From: a virus
Lineage: Duplodnaviria; Heunggongvirae; Uroviricota; Caudoviricetes
Reading direction: 5' to 3' (one strand)
DNA: 11,786 bases
IMG/VR virus record: IMGVR_UViG_2698536590_000002
Every line of letters starts with the position of its first letter. The first letter of the stretch is position 1. Shown here in pieces: positions 769-11,786 of this stretch. A model generated the notes under the pieces. That model was not told the DNA's origin. It searched no databases and saw nothing but the letters and a program-made list of their open reading frames with translations. The position numbers were made by a program, and so were the translations under genes.

Positions 769-1350
769 TTACCCTATAGGTGCTACTGGCCATTCAATAT
801 CCGGTGCAGTTAATGTATCAACACGGTTCAGCAACACCCGATACTTTTTCCAGGCTTCCAGCAACAAGGTTTCTTCCTCCGTTGCGATTTCCAGATCTAC
901 AGCATCCTGAAGTGGCGCAATATGCTCACTGGCTACCTGCATCAGGCTGTTTTTTGTTTCTTCTGCCTCCCGGATCCGGAACAGTTTTTCTGCTTCCGTA
1001 TCCTTCACCCAGGCTGTGCCGTTCCACTTCTGATATTCCCCTCCCGGCGACAACCAGGTAACATTTTCCGGTAACGGACCGAGTTCAGAAATAAATAACG
1101 CGTCGCCGGAAGCCACGTCATAAACCGTTTTACCCCGATGGTCTTCAACGAGATGCCACGATGCCTCATCACTGTTGAAAACAGCCACGAAGCCTGCCGG
1201 AATATCTGGTGGTGCAATATCGGTACTGTTTGCTGGCAGACCTGTATGAGGCGGAATATATGCGTCACCTTCACCAATAAATTCATTAGTTCCGGCCAGC
1301 AGATTATAAATTTTTATGGTCCGTGCTTGTTCACTCATTCTGAATGCCAT
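769..1350 (-). CDS. tfa: tail fibre assembly protein (lambda Tfa / T4 gp38-like chaperone family)
   Basis: 193-aa ORF starting [50 protein letters not shown], recognised as the conserved Tfa N-terminal domain of lambdoid prophages. ATG overlaps the stf stop (TAATG), indicating translational coupling. Confidence 0.85.
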
Positions 1351-4300
1351 TATGCAAGCCTCACAATATAGTTAAATGCGATGTTTTTGACGGTGTTTTC
1401 CGCGTTACCCGCAGCGTTAACGGTGATGGTGTGTCCATGTGAGCCAATCGCAACGGAGTGCGTATGAGCACCAATACCGACAGTATGTGCATGTGCGCCT
1501 GCGATTGCAGCAGTGCCGGACAGCGAGTGGGTATGAGCACCATCTGATGATGTCTTCCCTGCATTACGAGTCTGGCCACTACCGCTTGTTGTGCTCATAA
1601 TCCCCGCGCTTGGATTTGAAATCGCGGTATAACCATTAGGGAAAATGCTCGTGTTCGTGCCACCAAATGCACCGGAACTCTTGTGTTGGTGCGCGCCGGC
1701 ACTATTTGCGGTCCCGCTAATACTATGGGTATGCGCCCCGGTGTTATTCGTGGATTTGGTTCCGTAATCAAACGACGATGTGGTTTTCGTCCCCAAATCC
1801 GTACTGGATGCGCTGGCGCTGTGGGTGTGCGATTTAATGCCGTCCTGTTCCTGAGACAATACGGCGCGACCACTGGCAGGTTTGCCCTTAATCGTCCAGC
1901 CACGCATATCAGGGATCACGCCTGACGGATAAGCGGCTGCAAGTTTCGGGTATGCAGATTTGTCAAAAGTCTGCCCCTGCATCAGGGCATAACCAGACGG
2001 AACGGTATCTGATGGCCACGGGATTGGTGCGCCGACTGGGTAGCTTTCTGGTGGAAGATTTTTCGAGGTATAAACTTCTGCCCAGTCTTCCTCAAAACCA
2101 TAGCCATCTCTTGAGGAACGGTAGAACAGACCTCCATTTCTGTAATGTGCCTTCATCTGCAGGGTCCGGCAACTTCCGACTCCGGTATAGAAGTTAACCA
2201 GAATATAGCTGTCGCCAGAGCGGGTGACATTGTAAGCGCCTGATTCGGCATTCCATGGAACGCCCCCATCCGCATCGGCATATGTATCCGTTGCCCTTCT
2301 GGCAAAAGCAGCCACATGCGCGGCGGTTAAAGTAATATCTTTGGAACCATCAAACTCAACACCAGAAACCAGTCTTGGCGTTTGCAGCTTTGTTGCTGTT
2401 AATGCATTACCATTCAGACTTGCGGACAGTTTGGTTCCAATAATCAGTTCGCCGGTTGCGTTATCAATAGCAAACGGTCTTAATGTATTCCAGCCACCAT
2501 AAACATCACCTTGATTGGTAAGCAGCAGGTAAGTTTTAGCGCCATCATTACGCCATAATGCACCATACTCCCCACCTATCATTCGAATCTGATTACCACC
2601 ACGCGCTACAATTTCGTCTGTGGCAAAAAGTTTTTTGCACGACAAGTTATCGTTAACGATTAACGAATGAGACTCATAAAAACCACGCCCACTCTTAAAA
2701 TCAAGGATAACGTCCGCCGCGATACATTCAGTCGCCGGATTTGTTGCCCCAAACTTATAGGTCGTATCATTAACAACGAGATCAGCACCAGGTGCGGATA
2801 TTGACAGGCCATCTTCGATAAACGCAAAAACAGGGAAAGCAGCGCCATCAACATAGAACACAGAGCGCAAATCATCGCCCTTATTACTCATCATTATTGA
2901 GTGGATGGCTCGTTCATTGTTTTGATATTGCCAGAACATTCCATAAGCATAACGCCCCCTGTCAGTCCAGCCACCAGGCATAACAAATCCGTTAAACTCG
3001 CAGTTATTCATCGGATCGCCTGCGGTTCGCGTTGCCGTGGTGATAATGACCCTTGATGCCAGTTCGCTTACTGAGCCAGCAGAACGCATAACAACAACAG
3101 GGTAATATTTTCCAGATATTGCACCTGCAGGAGCGTTAACCCGCACATAACGCATACCACGCTTATCAGCAAAGTCTGTTTTACTGACCGCGTTAATGTT
3201 GTTCAGGAAGCGTCCCTTATCGGGTATATCAGCGCCGTTCTGGTCTTTCTGCAGACGTTTCTCTGCATTGTCATAGGCTGATTTTACTGCCTTTGGCGTT
3301 GCCGCCAGCGTTTCAGACGAACTGTTGGTCGCACTGCTGAGCTGTACTATCCCCTTTTTCGTCGTACTTGCATCCTCAAGCGCCACGGCGGATGCAATAT
3401 CCTCTGCCCGTTTAGCTGCTGTCTCGGCGCGCGTTGCTGCGGATTCTGCCGTATTCTTGCTCTGTGCTGCCGCCGTCGCACTGCCAGCAGCCTCTGTTGC
3501 CTTCGTGGATGCCGTCGTGGCGCTGCCTTTCGCTGCTGATGCCTGTCTGGTCGCCTCATCTTTTGAAGCAGACGCCGATGAGGCCGATGACGCCGCCGAA
3601 CTGGCGGACGATGCGGCAGCCGTTTTTGAGGATTCTGCGCTGGTTTCCGACGCTTTCGCGTTCGTTTCGGATGTCTTCGCTGCGGAAGCTGACCTCGCTG
3701 CTGCGTTGGCCTGTTCAGTGGCTTCGCCAGCCTTCGTTGTGGCTGTTGAAGCAGACGATGCGGCACTTTCTGCCGATTTTCCGGCGGCGGTGGCACTGGC
3801 TGAGGCCTGCCCGGCACTTGTTGACGCGGCGCTGGCAGACGACGCAGCCGCTGTTTTTGAGCCTGCCGCAGCTGAGGCACTCTGTCCCGCTGCCGTTTCA
3901 GAAGACTTAGCGTTCGTCTCGGACGTTTTGGCCGCCTTCGCAGAATTTGCTGTCGCCGTTGCCGAGGAAGCTGCGCTGCTGGCGCTCGAGGCTGCGCTCG
4001 TTTCTGATGATTTTGCCGCCTCTTTTGAAGCTGACGCATCCCGGGCTGAGGTGGCAGCTTCTGACGCTTTCGTGGTCGCGGTGGATGCAGAAGTGGCTGC
4101 TGATTGTTGTGACGCTGCCGCATTCGTTTCTGACGTTTTCGCCGCAGCGGCACTGGTGGCCGCCGCGCTTTTTGAGGACTCTGCAGCGGCAGCACTTTTT
4201 TCCGCTTCAGTGGCCTTTGTTGATGCCGTTCCTGCGCTGGAAGACGCTGACTGAGCCGACGACGCGGCCTGTCCGGCTGACGTGCTGGCTGCGCGTGCTG

Positions 4301-5484: not shown

Positions 5485-6126
5485 TCAACGAATACTGATG
5501 CCGGAAGCGGCTTTTTTGGTCACAATCACCGTACAGTCGGTGATATTACCTGCCCGCTGATTGCCTTTATGGAAAACCTTAAACTCCAGAGTGACGCTTC
5601 CCCTGCCACTCGGCATATCAATAACCGCACTGTAGCTACCGGGAATGGCCCCTTTAGTTTCTCTGGATGCGATTAATACACCGTTTTTGCGAACTTCAAA
5701 ACCATAACCCGTGTATCTTGTACCTCCCGGGTTATTACCACTTCCCGGATCGCTATACGCTATTCCGTTAAAGATAATGGGCGGAATAATGATTTGACGG
5801 TCAAAGTTATGATCATCGCTGATGGTGACTGTAACCGTCCCGTTTGGTGTTTCCGTATTACCCCACGTACCAGCCTGTTTCGGGAATGATTTGGATACAG
5901 CTTTAACGAAGTCACCTCTGACCTGAGTCGCCTCCAGCATGCCCTTAATCGTACAGTTTTCATTTACCGTGACATTGTTGAGCGTCCCGGCGTTCGCATT
6001 CACACTGCCACTGATATCCGCATTTTTAGCGGTCAGCTTTCCGTCCGGTGTCAGGGAAAATGCCGGTGGATTTCCACCGCTGGTAATGGTGGGGGCCGTC
6101 AGGCGTTTCAGGAACACGTCGTTCAT
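5485..6126 (-). CDS. C-terminal receptor-binding domain of host-specificity protein J (central tail fibre), present as a truncated stand-alone ORF
   Basis: 213-aa ORF; motifs [40 protein letters not shown] and DDH.FDRQI resemble the extreme C-terminus of lambda gpJ as I recall it. Its ATG overlaps the T stop (ATGA) exactly where H would normally start; the preceding sequence GAAGGGATCAGATATTC matches the lambda T/H junction. A full J is ~1100 aa, so roughly 900 codons plus H-I are absent. Confidence 0.6.
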
Positions 6127-6545
6127 GAATATCTGATCCCTTCTGATACTGTCATCAGCATTACGTCATCCTCCGTCATGTCCGCCACATCCGGGGAAGC
6201 GGGGATAACTTCATTCCCGTCCGGGCCAAAGCGGACACCTCCGGCAAGCCCTGCCGCTTTCTGCATCAGCACATCATCTTCAGGCTCTTCGTCAGCCTCG
6301 CGCCGGTTCAGCAGACTGAAATCCAGCGGATGCATATCCGGATCGCTGAAAAACAGGCTGAGCACGGTGTACGTCAGCCCGGAAAAGTGCATATCCAGCA
6401 GAACATCATGAAAATAATGGGTACTGTAAAAGCGGTGCCAGTCGGCATACTCCGTGGATGACATCCCGGCAAGCATGGCACGCCAGTCGGGTCGCCCCAT
6501 CTCACGCGCCAGTTTCAGGGCAAAACTCAGCTCACCGTCGAACAC
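6123..6545 (-). CDS. T: tail assembly chaperone T frame, expressed as a G-T fusion by -1 frameshift
   Basis: -1 frame relative to G with no independent ATG; reads (V)[39 protein letters not shown]...VSEGIRYS, matching lambda gpT. Confidence 0.8.
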
Positions 6546-6949
6546 TTTCCCGCAGAAACAGGCTCTGCGGGCCCGGCGTCCTCTGTCTGTTCAGGGGCAT
6601 TATTCACCACAAACTCATACATACCAGACAGCCGGTACACCACGTTTTCAGCATGAGAAATTGCCTCCGTGGGCCAGGTGGTAAGCACTTCCTGCTCAAT
6701 CTGTTTAACGGCTTCATTCATGGACGGCATCTGCGTCTTCTGCGGATGGTTATGCCACAGGGACATCGCCACCAGAAACGCGCCGGTTCTGATGGCGTCT
6801 TCCACAGTAAACTTCCGGTTGCTGTCTGACTCCGCCTGTTCTGCCTGCCGTTTCATCAGGGCGAGATGCTCAATGCGCTGCAGGGCTGACAGTTCAGAAA
6901 GCGTGACGGTCACACCGTTATGTTCAAATGATTCGGTTTTCAGGAACAT
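6527..6949 (-). CDS. G: tail assembly chaperone G
   Basis: 140-aa ORF MFLKTESFEHNGVTVTLSELSALQRIEHLALMKRQAEQ...[11 protein letters not shown], recognised as lambda gpG (same length). RBS GGAGAG upstream; sits between the V stop and the T frame. Confidence 0.85.
   Translation of the reverse strand: MFLKTESFEHNGVTVTLSELSALQRIEHLALMKRQAEQAESDSNRKFTVEDAIRTGAFLVAMSLWHNHPQKTQMPSMNEAVKQIEQEVLTTWPTEAISHAENVVYRLSGMYEFVVNNAPEQTEDAGPAEPVSAGKCSTVS
6545..6551 (-). other. programmed -1 ribosomal frameshift slippery heptamer G GGA AAG (G to G-T)
   Basis: Plus-strand CTTTCCC at 6545-6551 is GGGAAAG on the coding strand, in G frame as G_GGA_AAG (codons A-G-K of ...SAGKCSTVS). This is the canonical lambda G/T slip site, and the T frame opens exactly here. 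Confidence 0.8.
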
Positions 6950-7434: not shown

Positions 7435-8024
7435 AACCCCACCTCGCAGACAAAGCGGGTGTAAATTGAGGGAATACAACGTATCGCAAAAAAGCAGAAA
7501 CGTAACAGACTCGGAGTCAGTGAATAACTCAGGTATTGAGTTATCAGCTAATATCGAGACTCAAAAAATGGAAAAACCAGCTCGACGGCGGGTTTAAGCT
7601 GTGTGACGAAGTAACCACTCTTAACAGCATAACCAATTTTTTACGTACGTAAACCACTGAATGATATTTATGAGAATGCTACCGAGTGTTCAAAACACCA
7701 CCACAAATACATAAGAAAACCTCAACAAATAACCAATAAATAATTTCCGGCGTTATTTTTAGTTAATTTAAATTAAACCATCGAATTATAGACCCCCCCC
7801 ATAAATAACAGCCATTAATATAAATTAGCTAATAGGTTTATTTTTGTTCAAATAAGAGCCATAAATAGGTTTCGATAGAAAAAGTTCAGATAAAAATAGA
7901 GATCTACTTCACAAATTAAATGAGAAACTAAAACTTACATCTTGAAATAATCACATTGATTAGATGAATATTTATCGCGCAGTGACATCATTTTTTAATA
8001 ATAGTTCAAAAAAAAGGGCTCACG

Positions 8025-9107
8025 ATGAAAAAATTAACAGTGGCAATTTCTGCTGTAGCTGCATCAGTACTGATGGCGATGTCTGCTCAGGCAGCTGAAA
8101 TTTATAATAAAGACAGTAACAAGCTGGATCTGTACGGGAAAGTTAATGCTAAGCACTACTTCTCCTCTAATGATGCAGATGATGGTGATACTACTTATGC
8201 CCGTCTTGGCTTCAAAGGTGAAACCCAAATCAACGATCAACTGACTGGTTTCGGTCAGTGGGAATATGAATTCAAAGGCAACCGCGCTGAATCTCAAGGT
8301 TCCTCCAAAGATAAAACCCGTCTTGCCTTCGCTGGCCTGAAATTCGGTGACTACGGCTCCATCGATTACGGCCGTAACTACGGTGTAGCATACGACATCG
8401 GTGCGTGGACTGACGTCCTGCCAGAATTCGGTGGTGACACTTGGACTCAAACAGATGTGTTCATGACTGGTCGCACCACTGGTGTTGCAACTTATCGTAA
8501 CAACGACTTCTTTGGTCTGGTTGATGGTCTGAACTTTGCTGCTCAGTATCAGGGTAAAAATGACCGCACTGACGTAACTGAAGCTAATGGTGATGGTTTC
8601 GGTTTCTCCACTACTTATGAGTATGAAGGATTCGGTGTAGGTGCAACCTATGCTAAATCTGATCGCACTAATAATCAGGTTATCTACGGTAACAACGGTC
8701 TGAATGCTTCTGGTCAAAATGCTGAAGTATGGGCAGCTGGTCTGAAATATGATGCGAACAACATCTATCTGGCCACCACCTATTCTGAAACCCAGAACAT
8801 GACTGTTTTTGGTAATAACCATATTGCCAACAAAGCACAAAACTTCGAAGCTGTTGCACAATATCAGTTCGACTTCGGCCTGCGTCCATCCGTTGCTTAC
8901 CTGCATTCTAAAGGAAAAGACTTGGGTGTTTGGGGTGATCAGGACCTGGTTGAATATGTTGATGTAGGTGCAACCTATTACTTCAACAAAAATATGTCCA
9001 CTTTTGTTGACTACAAAATCAACCTGATTGATAAGAGCGATTTCACGAAAGCATCTGGCGTTGCTACCGATGATATCGTTGCTGTAGGTATGGTTTACCA
9101 GTTCTAA
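8025..9107 (+). CDS. nmpC: phage-borne general porin of the OmpC/OmpF/PhoE family (NmpC / Lc type)
   Basis: 360-aa ORF with signal peptide [23 protein letters not shown], mature N-terminus [17 protein letters not shown], porin hallmarks ([43 protein letters not shown]) and C-terminal VYQF. Matches what I recall of NmpC/Lc. Divergent from and adjacent to Q, as in DLP12. Confidence 0.9.
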
Positions 9108-9764: not shown

Positions 9765-9905
9765 TCATACTCCTGCTCCTGTCAGGGTTTTGGCGTAATT
9801 CTTCAGTATTCGGTAATCGGTCAAAACAGAACCGGGGAAACGATATAAGCGCAGATGCCCCCAGCGGTGGCGAAGAAGTTCTGCCATATAAAACTCAAAC
9901 ATCAT
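9765..9905 (-). CDS. ylcG: small DLP12 YlcG-like protein (46-47 aa), not in the ORF track
   Basis: Hand translation of the minus strand between rusA and Q gives [46 protein letters not shown] with stop at 9765-9767. The ATG overlaps the rusA stop (ATGATG over TGA at 9902-9904). Matches my recollection of YlcG. Confidence 0.55.
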
Positions 9906-10264
9906 TCATTCCCAATTTCGGTGATGGTCAGTTCCAGCCTCCCACCTTTGGTAACAGGCATCTTCACAACGCGGTAATCAACGACCTGAGCATCATCCAG
10001 CCAGAAACCTGCTTTAGTGAGTGCGTCAAAAGCGGCTTTTTGCAGATTATCCAGGTCACGGCGACGGCGATCCGGCATGTGGCACTCAATGCGGATTTTC
10101 ACAGGCATAGCCAGGCCGATATCCAGCATTGCGTTTTTAATGATTCGGGCGACGTTATCGCGGTATGCCTGCCCCTCTGCGCTGACGTGCGTGCGCCCGC
10201 GATTATGGCGGTAATAGCGATTATTGCTCGGAGGCCAGGGTAATGTGATGCTGTAGGTATTCAC
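9902..10264 (-). CDS. rusA: crossover junction endodeoxyribonuclease RusA (Holliday junction resolvase)
   Basis: 120-aa ORF (GTG start with RBS AAGAGGGGG) reading [119 protein letters not shown], essentially the E. coli RusA sequence as I recall it. Confidence 0.85.
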
Positions 10265-10386
10265 GCCTTAATAACCCCCTCTTTCAGCCAGATAACCTGT
10301 GTTCTCGCCATACCTTCCAGCGCGCATTCTTTTGCATATGCAGCATCGACTTGCTTGGCATGCCCTTTAGGCGCGATCACTTTCGT
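10261..10386 (-). pseudogene. ybcO: 3' remnant of ybcO-like (DUF1364) gene; last ~41 codons only
   Basis: Minus-strand frame ending in TGA overlapping the rusA GTG (GTGA) reads [41 protein letters not shown]; the last ~28 residues match the YbcO C-terminus as I recall it. An in-frame TAG lies at 10387-10389 and no start or matching N-terminal sequence lies upstream. Confidence 0.5.
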
Positions 10387-10494
10387 CTACTCCGTTACAA
10401 AGCGAGGCTGGGTATTTCCCGGCCTTTCCGTTACCCGAAATCCCCTGAAAGCACAGCGGCTGGCTGAGGAGATAAATAATAAACGGGGAGCTGT

Positions 10495-10686
10495 ATGCAC
10501 AAAGCATCTCCTGTTGAGTTAAGAACGAGCATTGAGATGGCACATAGCCTCGCTCAAATTGGAGTCAGGTTTGTGCCAATACCAGTAGAAACAGACGAAG
10601 AATTTCATACGTTAGCCGCATCCCTTTCACAAAAGCTGGAAATGATGGTGGCGAAAGCAGAAGCAGATGAGAGAGACCAGGTATGA
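10495..10686 (+). CDS. 63-aa phage early-region protein of unknown function (possibly lambda orf63-like)
   Basis: ORF MHKASPVELRTSIEMAHSLAQIGVRFVPIPVETDEEFHTLAASLSQKLEMMVAKAEADERDQV with good RBS GGGGAG 4 nt before the ATG; its stop overlaps the next start (ATGA). The lambda orf63 assignment rests on size and position only. Confidence 0.6.
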   Translation: MHKASPVELRTSIEMAHSLAQIGVRFVPIPVETDEEFHTLAASLSQKLEMMVAKAEADERDQV

Positions 10687-10766
10687 CAACCACTGAATGC
10701 ATTTTTCTGGCAGCGGGCTTCATATTCTGTGTGCTTATGCTTGCCGACATGGGACTTGTTCAATGA
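10683..10766 (+). CDS. 27-codon hydrophobic micro-ORF (single predicted transmembrane helix), not in the ORF track
   Basis: ATG at 10683 overlaps the upstream stop (ATGA) and its own TGA overlaps the next ATG (ATGA at 10763-10766). Encodes MTTTECIFLAAGFIFCVLMLADMGLVQ. Supported only by the double translational-coupling geometry and hydrophobicity. Confidence 0.3.
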   Translation: MTTTECIFLAAGFIFCVLMLADMGLVQ

Positions 10767-10978
10767 CACCTCAGCAGGAAAACGCCCTTCGCAGCATTGC
10801 CCGTCAGGCTAATTCTGAAATCAAAAAAGCCAGACAGCAGTTTCCGGATAAAAACGTCGATGACATTTGCCGTAGCGTACTGAAGAAGCACCGCGAAACG
10901 GTAACGCTGATGGGATTCACACCGACTCATTTAAGCCTGGCGATCGGCATGTTAAACGGCGTCTTTAAGGAACGGTGA
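10763..10978 (+). CDS. 71-aa phage early-region protein of unknown function
   Basis: Reading from the ATG at 10763: MTPQQENALRSIARQANSEIKKARQQFPDKNVDDICRSVLKKHRETVTLMGFTPTHLSLAIGMLNGVFKER. The track ORF (from 10697) has a longer N-terminal extension, but 10763 is the coupled start. Confidence 0.55.
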   Translation: MTPQQENALRSIARQANSEIKKARQQFPDKNVDDICRSVLKKHRETVTLMGFTPTHLSLAIGMLNGVFKER

Positions 10979-11000
10979 GCATGAAAAACAAAATCATCAT

Positions 11001-11021
11001 GGAGCTACAGGCTCCTTTTTT
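11001..11021 (+). terminator. weak terminator-like hairpin plus T-tract
   Basis: GGAGC TACAG GCTCC followed by TTTTTTATT. Only a 5-bp stem. It lies inside a possible 29-codon ORF (10981-11070), which I therefore consider less likely to be real. Confidence 0.3.
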
Positions 11022-11076
11022 ATTATTCGCATTCACCCTCAAGCGTATTAACCAACAATTCAGGGATTAATGAAAG

Positions 11077-11298
11077 ATGGCAGACATCATTGATTCAGCA
11101 TCAGAAATTGAAGAATTACAGCGCAACACAGCAATAAAAATGCGCCGCCTGAACCACCAGGCTATATCTGCCACTCATTGTTGTTAGTGTGGCGATCCGA
11201 TAGATGAACGAAGACGCCTGGTCGTTCAGGGTTGTCGGACTTGTGCAAGTTGCCAGGAGGATCTGGAACTTATCAGTAAACAGAGAGGTTCGAAGTGA
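11077..11298 (+). pseudogene. TraR/DksA-family C4 zinc-finger protein gene (lambda Orf73-like) interrupted by an in-frame amber codon
   Basis: Frame reads MADIIDSASEIEELQRNTAIKMRRLNHQAISATHCC then TAG (11185-11187), then CGDPIDERRRLVVQGCRTCASCQEDLELISKQRGSK and stop. Across the TAG this aligns with the TraR motif C-x-x-C-G-N-P-I-P-E-A-R-R...C-x-x-C as I recall it, with the TAG at the second x of the first CxxC. Confidence 0.6.
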
Positions 11299-11783
11299 GC
11301 GAAATTAACTCTCAGGCACTGCGTGAAGCGGCAGAGCAGGCAATGCATGACGACTGGGGATTTGACGCAGACCTTTTCCATGAATTGGTAACACCATCGA
11401 TTGTGCTGGAACTGCTGGATGAACGGGAAAGAAACCAGCAATACATCAAACGCCGCGACCAGGAGAACGAGGATATTGCGCTAACAGTAGGGAAACTGCG
11501 TGTTGAGCTTGAAACAGCAAAATCAAAACTCAACGAGCAGCGTGAGTATTACGAAGGTGTTATCTCGGATGGGAGTAAGCGTATTGCTAAACTGGAAAGC
11601 AACGAAGTCCGTGAAGACGGAAACCAGTTTCTTGTTGTTCGCCATCCTGGGAAGACTCCTGTTATCAAGCACTGCACTGGTGACCTGGAAGAGTTTCTGC
11701 GGCAGTTAATCGAACAAGACCCGTTAGTAACTATCGACATCACTACGCATCGCTATTACGGGGTTGGTAGACTGGCCCCCTGA
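11295..11783 (+). CDS. Ea22-like early-region protein with predicted coiled coil
   Basis: 162-aa ORF; GTG start overlaps the upstream TGA (GTGA), with RBS AGAGG 8 nt upstream. MSEINSQALREAAEQAMHDDWGFDADLFHELVTPSIVLELLDERERNQQYIKRRDQENEDIALTVGKLRVELETAKSKLNEQ has heptad-like character. The Ea22 assignment is from memory of prophage proteins carrying that label and is tentative. Confidence 0.5.
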   Translation: MSEINSQALREAAEQAMHDDWGFDADLFHELVTPSIVLELLDERERNQQYIKRRDQENEDIALTVGKLRVELETAKSKLNEQREYYEGVISDGSKRIAKLESNEVREDGNQFLVVRHPGKTPVIKHCTGDLEEFLRQLIEQDPLVTIDITTHRYYGVGRLAP

Positions 11784-11786
11784 ATC

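Follow-up and report, generated by a model that had tools for sequence, protein, structure and literature searches.

The prophage remnant and its surroundings

The window, a stretch of 11,786 nucleotides, is the complete contig LOOJ01000065.1 of the E. coli draft assembly GCA_001575515.1, and it carries the decayed remnant of a lambdoid prophage. The remnant comprises a tail-fibre assembly gene, a tail fibre gene, Lom, a C-terminal fragment of J, the tail-chaperone genes T and G, an OmpC-like porin gene, a Q-type antiterminator gene, ylcG and rusA. Divergent from the rusA side lie a 5'-truncated orf60a, orf63, orf61, orf73 and ea22. The features relevant to the present analysis are as follows.

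5485-6126, minus strand: 213-aa C-terminal J fragment abutting T, a deletion scar
10355-10522, plus strand: orf60a, 5'-truncated (DUF1317), from gene call and Pfam
10495-10686, plus strand: orf63 (DUF1382), from gene call and Pfam
10763-10978, plus strand: orf61 homologue, from gene call
10994-11026, plus strand: predicted equivalents of terminator t2 and promoter p1, with a hairpin at 11001-11015 followed by the T-run TTTTTTATTA (to 11024)
11077-11298, plus strand: orthologue of lambda orf73 (TraR family), a pseudogene as written, with 73 codons broken at codon 37
11077-11187, plus strand: residual 36-codon open reading frame, from the N-terminal DxxDxA helix to C35-C36, from translation
11185-11187, plus strand: TAG replacing GAG (Glu37) through G to T at 11185, from alignment to lambda, strain ML35 and sister contigs
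11295-11783, plus strand: ea22 (Ead/Ea22 family, Pfam PF13935), the start of lambda ea22 corresponding to 11295
11768-11786, plus strand: left end of IS2, its first 19 bases, reaching the contig end, with the junction at 11767/11768

Only 90 bases separate rusA, on the minus strand, from the truncated orf60a, and the deletion junction to the rusA side is situated at about 10367-10369. Nothing remains of the stretch that runs from pL and N by way of cI to O and P, and the native promoter and antitermination system of the operon are therefore gone. Assemblies with the same rusA/orf60a deletion junction, found by way of the 55-aa truncated Orf60a, are referred to here as sisters. Their contigs continue past ea22 into ea8.5, xis and int and then into the host genes ybhC and ybhJ, which places the prophage at att-lambda. 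The J fragment and the truncated orf60a recur as deletion scars in some two dozen further E. coli assemblies. The former abuts T, the latter sits next to rusA as the second scar, and the two together mark one widespread lineage of cryptic att-lambda prophage.

Several other elements of the remnant can be recorded. An Rfam scan gave a full-length match to family IS009 (RF02111; 228 bits) at 809-1007 on the minus strand, a stretch that falls within the tail-fibre assembly gene (769-1350, minus strand). Where the G-like (6527-6949) and T-like (6123-6545) tail-chaperone reading frames overlap, a GGGAAAG heptamer is present at 6545-6551 on the minus strand; this looks like the -1 frameshift site of lambda G/GT, kept though most other tail genes between G/T and the J fragment have been lost. 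A poly-C tract at 7793-7800, situated some 225 bases upstream of the gene for the OmpC-like porin (8025-9107), counts eight residues in the window and six in all six sister contigs that cover it. The longer tract could have arisen by strand slippage close to the promoter of the porin gene, or it could be a sequencing error of the homopolymer type.

The spacer upstream of orf73 corresponds to the region of lambda, between orf61 and orf73, in which a terminator (t2) and a promoter (p1, by BPROM) have been predicted (PMC4195576). The hairpin in the window scored as terminator-like and is overlapped by the hexamers TCATCA and TTTTATTAT, which match the published table of these elements, both of them predictions (PMC4195576). 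A sigma-70 consensus scan of 9800-11786 returned no plus-strand site, and its number of hits was not above that of shuffled sequence; the sequence of the BPROM-predicted p1 is present yet falls below the criteria of that scan. The spacer is also filled by a 31-codon open reading frame with a GTG start (10975-11070, plus strand), read by hand as MKNKIIMELQAPFLLFAFTLKRINQQFRD, which crosses the predicted t2 hairpin.

Downstream, ea22 is truncated after base 11767 by IS2, such that a 162-aa Ea22-IS2 fusion is encoded instead of the 182-aa protein. Similarity to lambda and to the sister contigs ends at this base, and TAGACTGGCCCCCTGAATC reads on without mismatch into the IS2 element carried by plasmid F, at a point 37 bases upstream of the transposase gene of that element.

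Identity of the interrupted gene

Translation of 11077-11298 on the plus strand yields MADIIDSASEIEELQRNTAIKMRRLNHQAISATHCC*CGDPIDERRRLVVQGCRTCASCQEDLELISKQRGSK*, in which the TAG at 11185-11187 is the single internal stop. The earlier note on this DNA had described one amber codon in an otherwise well-formed 73-codon frame of TraR/DksA-like character, and both parts of this description are borne out; the gene can further be named as the orthologue of lambda orf73 itself. Positions 10950-11767 align with phage lambda 30740-29923 at 99.0% identity, the plus strand of the window being the leftward strand of lambda, and by this collinearity the frame falls between lambda orf61 (30839-31024) and ea22 (29847-30395). 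In a 271-base alignment across orf73 three bases differ from lambda, among them the one that opens codon 37. The gene order orf60a-orf63-orf61-orf73-ea22, as established from gene calls, Pfam families and the collinearity with lambda, is that of the conserved exo-xis block (PMC8614690).

Profile searches and sequence comparison with solved chains agree with this assignment. With Glu restored at position 37, the repaired protein matches Pfam PF01258 (zf-dskA_traR) at 34.8 bits and E=1.6e-8, against a cut-off of 24.9 bits. The C-terminal half by itself also scores above this cut-off, and the 36-residue N-terminal fragment alone has no match in a Pfam search. The NCBIfam model TIGR02419 (TraR family) gives E=1e-14 at 54.7 bits, slightly below its cut-off of 59.7, and the repaired protein further matches the solved chains of F-plasmid TraR (5w1s_M, E=2e-5; also 6n57 and related entries). 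The copies of the gene in strains ML35 and 52F4 are annotated as "TraR/DksA family transcriptional regulator".

The motifs of the family are likewise in place. The N-terminal DxxDxA motif is present as D3-I-I-D6-S-A8, and the zinc motif CxxC-x17-CxxC as C35-C36-[37]-C38, 17 residues, and C56-A-S-C59, with the same spacing as that quoted for the family (PMC9239242). The expected spacing of both cysteine pairs (C35/C38 and C56/C59), also claimed in the earlier note, was thereby found, and the stop indeed occupies a variable position of the first CxxC, namely its second "x", codon 37. The coupling to a downstream gene proved correct as well: the end of orf73, with its TGA stop at 11296-11298, shares four bases (GTGA) with ea22, which starts with GTG at 11295. 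The match to orf73 is one of homology to a known gene and not a chance pattern. A full, uninterrupted reading frame with all three elements that contact RNA polymerase is not encoded here, owing to the TAG at codon 37. The window orf73 is accordingly a member of the TraR/Orf73 subfamily by descent, as a pseudogene, and not a functional member as encoded.

Distribution of the amber codon

The amber codon is private to the window. The T at 11185, where strain ML35 has G, is the sole mismatch between the two in 1401 bases. Over 11,415 bases aligned with the sister contigs L024 and L026, both of which have all of its deletion scars as well as complete 73-aa and 182-aa genes, position 11185 (G in these) is again the only substitution, and the other difference is the C-tract at 7793-7800 (C8 in the window versus C6). 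Three changes thus set the window apart from its sister assemblies: the G to T change at 11185, the C8 tract and the IS2 insertion in ea22, the last being absent from all sister contigs examined. In every sister contig that reaches orf73 the 73-aa frame is intact, as is the 182-aa frame of Ea22 in those spanning ea22. Compared with one another over these 11 kb, the sister contigs show 0-2 substitutions.

Wider searches gave the same result. A query of 63 bases centred on the TAG was aligned at 3334 places, distributed over 2400 of the 5426 complete E. coli genomes, with no exact match among them, the best reaching 98.4% identity (one mismatch). Exact-pattern scans for the TAG allele returned none in the GTDB species representatives and none in viral contigs. 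A 20-mer scan of metagenome contigs produced two matches, both rejected as chance occurrences with unrelated flanks. In the alignment to homologues that the earlier note had proposed, residue 37 is Glu in 77 of 94 full-length family cluster representatives, Asp in nine, Lys in six and Ala in two. Because Glu prevails in this manner and the remainder are Asp, Lys or Ala, Glu37 is taken as ancestral, and from an ancestral GAG the TAG is a single G to T transversion.

An exact look-up of the 36-aa fragment, a search able to find only contigs that end at codon 37, listed it in 55 blocks of a public collection. These matches were rejected as TAG alleles and put down to the look-up itself, as all ten of the places examined are ordinary orf73 genes cut at codon 37 by a contig end. 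These ten, in draft or Logan assemblies (L004-L013), end at the equivalent of 11184-11187, in ...TGTTGT, ...TGTTGTG or ...TGTTGTGA. Contig breaks within codon 37 fit the presence of co-resident lambdoid prophages that differ at this polymorphic codon (E/K/D/A) and so generate branch points during assembly.

Consequences for the encoded protein

Three elements that contact RNA polymerase have been described: a helix at each end of the protein and, between them, the C4 globular domain, which meets the rim helices through R48 and beta' Si3 through R49 (PMC9239242). The 36-residue fragment retains one zinc ligand of four (C35) and is without C38, C56 and C59. Also absent are the C-terminal helix and R46/R47, the residues of the window copy that correspond to TraR R48/R49. 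With a single zinc ligand left and both the arginine pair and the C-terminal helix gone, the peptide is unlikely to act on RNA polymerase still, as far as its sequence can tell.

Routes to the missing half of the protein were also considered. The sequence between the TAG and the terminal stop contains no in-frame ATG, GTG or TTG; the C-terminal half therefore cannot be made separately, and re-initiation was rejected as its source. A tRNA scan of the window found no tRNA gene, and an Rfam scan found nothing at the orf73 locus. Insertion of selenocysteine or pyrrolysine at the TAG was rejected: the selenocysteine codon is UGA, and E. coli is not known to have a pyl system. The features that would mark a programmed or suppressed amber codon, its recurrence in other copies or a tRNA gene in the window, were not found.

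Origin of the amber codon

Three origins had been offered in the earlier note: a recent nonsense mutation, a sequencing error and a suppressible amber. The first two stand, the T being private and the sisters carrying G; the third finds no support, the stop being unconserved and the window holding no tRNA. We favour a real, very recent and private loss-of-function G to T nonsense change in a decaying prophage, with a confidence of about 0.68. A transversion in one lineage would have turned Glu37 (GAG) into an amber codon, and translation would stop after Cys36 to leave only a 36-residue fragment with the DxxDxA helix kept. This fragment, with its one zinc ligand and without the RNA-polymerase-binding arginines, would leave orf73 inactivated because it lacks three zinc ligands and all downstream sequence. 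The early stop would in addition uncouple the translation of ea22, a gene already destroyed by IS2. The product is thus probably non-functional, and the change may represent neutral decay or may have been mildly favoured, the latter because expression of Orf73 slows host growth.

A sequencing or assembly error is the main alternative, a rather unlikely one albeit with several observations in its favour. On this view orf73 would be intact in the strain, with GAG at codon 37, and the T would have been miscalled in the consensus of a draft assembly of 2016 vintage; it occurs in this single draft contig and in no other sequence searched, and the same contig has the private C8 versus C6 homopolymer difference, a classic type of error. 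Co-resident prophage copies differ at codon 37, assemblies often break there, and the region is repeated in many genomes. The collapse of two real copies, however, would not provide a T in the first base, as the natural alleles give Glu, Asp, Lys and Ala. Moreover, one private SNP is to be expected in the window, because the sister contigs show 0-2 true substitutions over 11 kb, a rate that exceeds typical consensus substitution error rates, and the contig bears an unambiguous real private event in the IS2 insertion. A tolerated amber, either with suppressor read-through to full-length Orf73 or with an active 36-residue DxxDxA peptide, is most improbable. The acceptance of Glu, Asp, Lys and Ala at position 37 among homologues suggests that the product of suppression would be likely to fold, the remnant keeps the D3 and D6 required for Orf73 activity (PMC9239242), and a promoter is predicted just upstream (PMC4195576). 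Against these points, the window is without a tRNA gene, the allele was found in no other lineage, and the fragment, down to one zinc ligand of four, has neither the arginines that reach the rim helices and Si3 nor the C-terminal helix; pL and N are lost and a terminator-like hairpin lies directly upstream. Strong amber suppressors are, furthermore, rare in natural isolates of E. coli. That a free 36-residue helix peptide or a read-through protein, made from the upstream promoter, would still modulate RNA polymerase is hardly credible.

The locus is a known gene, lambda orf73, with an ordinary private base change or a base-call error, and represents no new kind of feature. It adds at most another case of cryptic-prophage decay, here in a gene that slows host growth when expressed. 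The useful outcome is a negative one, in that the amber codon stems from one private base change and is not a recoding signal, and a caution for annotation follows from the gene calls of the contig, which skip the orf73 locus. Were the remnant both made and active, it would constitute a natural minimal secondary-channel effector.

Comparison with TraR, lambda Orf73 and related prophages

F-plasmid TraR (PDB 5w1s, 6n57, 6pst) shares the 73-residue architecture of the window gene, with its DxxDxA helix, CxxC-x17-CxxC motif and C-terminal helix. The two are distantly related (E about 1e-5) and can be aligned over residues 1-64, and Orf73 carries two cysteines beyond those of TraR, C36 and C53. 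Unlike TraR, Orf73 shows weak or no activation of the host promoters tested (PMC9239242). The window copy is interrupted, whereas F-plasmid TraR is not.

Lambda Orf73, a TraR-type protein that binds in the secondary channel of RNA polymerase, has the same length, six cysteines and DxxDxA motif as the window copy, with about 99% nucleotide identity between the genes. Experiments on it have shown binding to RNA polymerase and inhibition of rrnB P1 (without ppGpp) and rpsT P2, with D3 and D6 being needed for its activity; phage yield increases three- to four-fold through it, and its expression slows the growth of the host (PMC9239242). The neighbours of the gene are also the same, with orf60a, orf63 and orf61 upstream and ea22 downstream across the 4-base GTGA overlap. 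The two differ in that codon 37 is GAG in lambda and TAG in the window, and the window copy, unlike that of lambda, belongs to a cryptic prophage that has lost pL and N, and is followed by an ea22 cut by IS2.

Intact copies of orf73 are found in the cryptic att-lambda prophages of, among others, ML35, 52F4, GCA_040964115.1 and GCA_002535575.1. All share the prophage architecture of the window beside ybhC. In ML35 and 52F4 ea22 is annotated as partial, and the sister drafts GCA_040964115.1 and GCA_002535575.1 are base-identical to the window over 11.4 kb bar the three private changes. All four encode the uninterrupted 73-aa protein.
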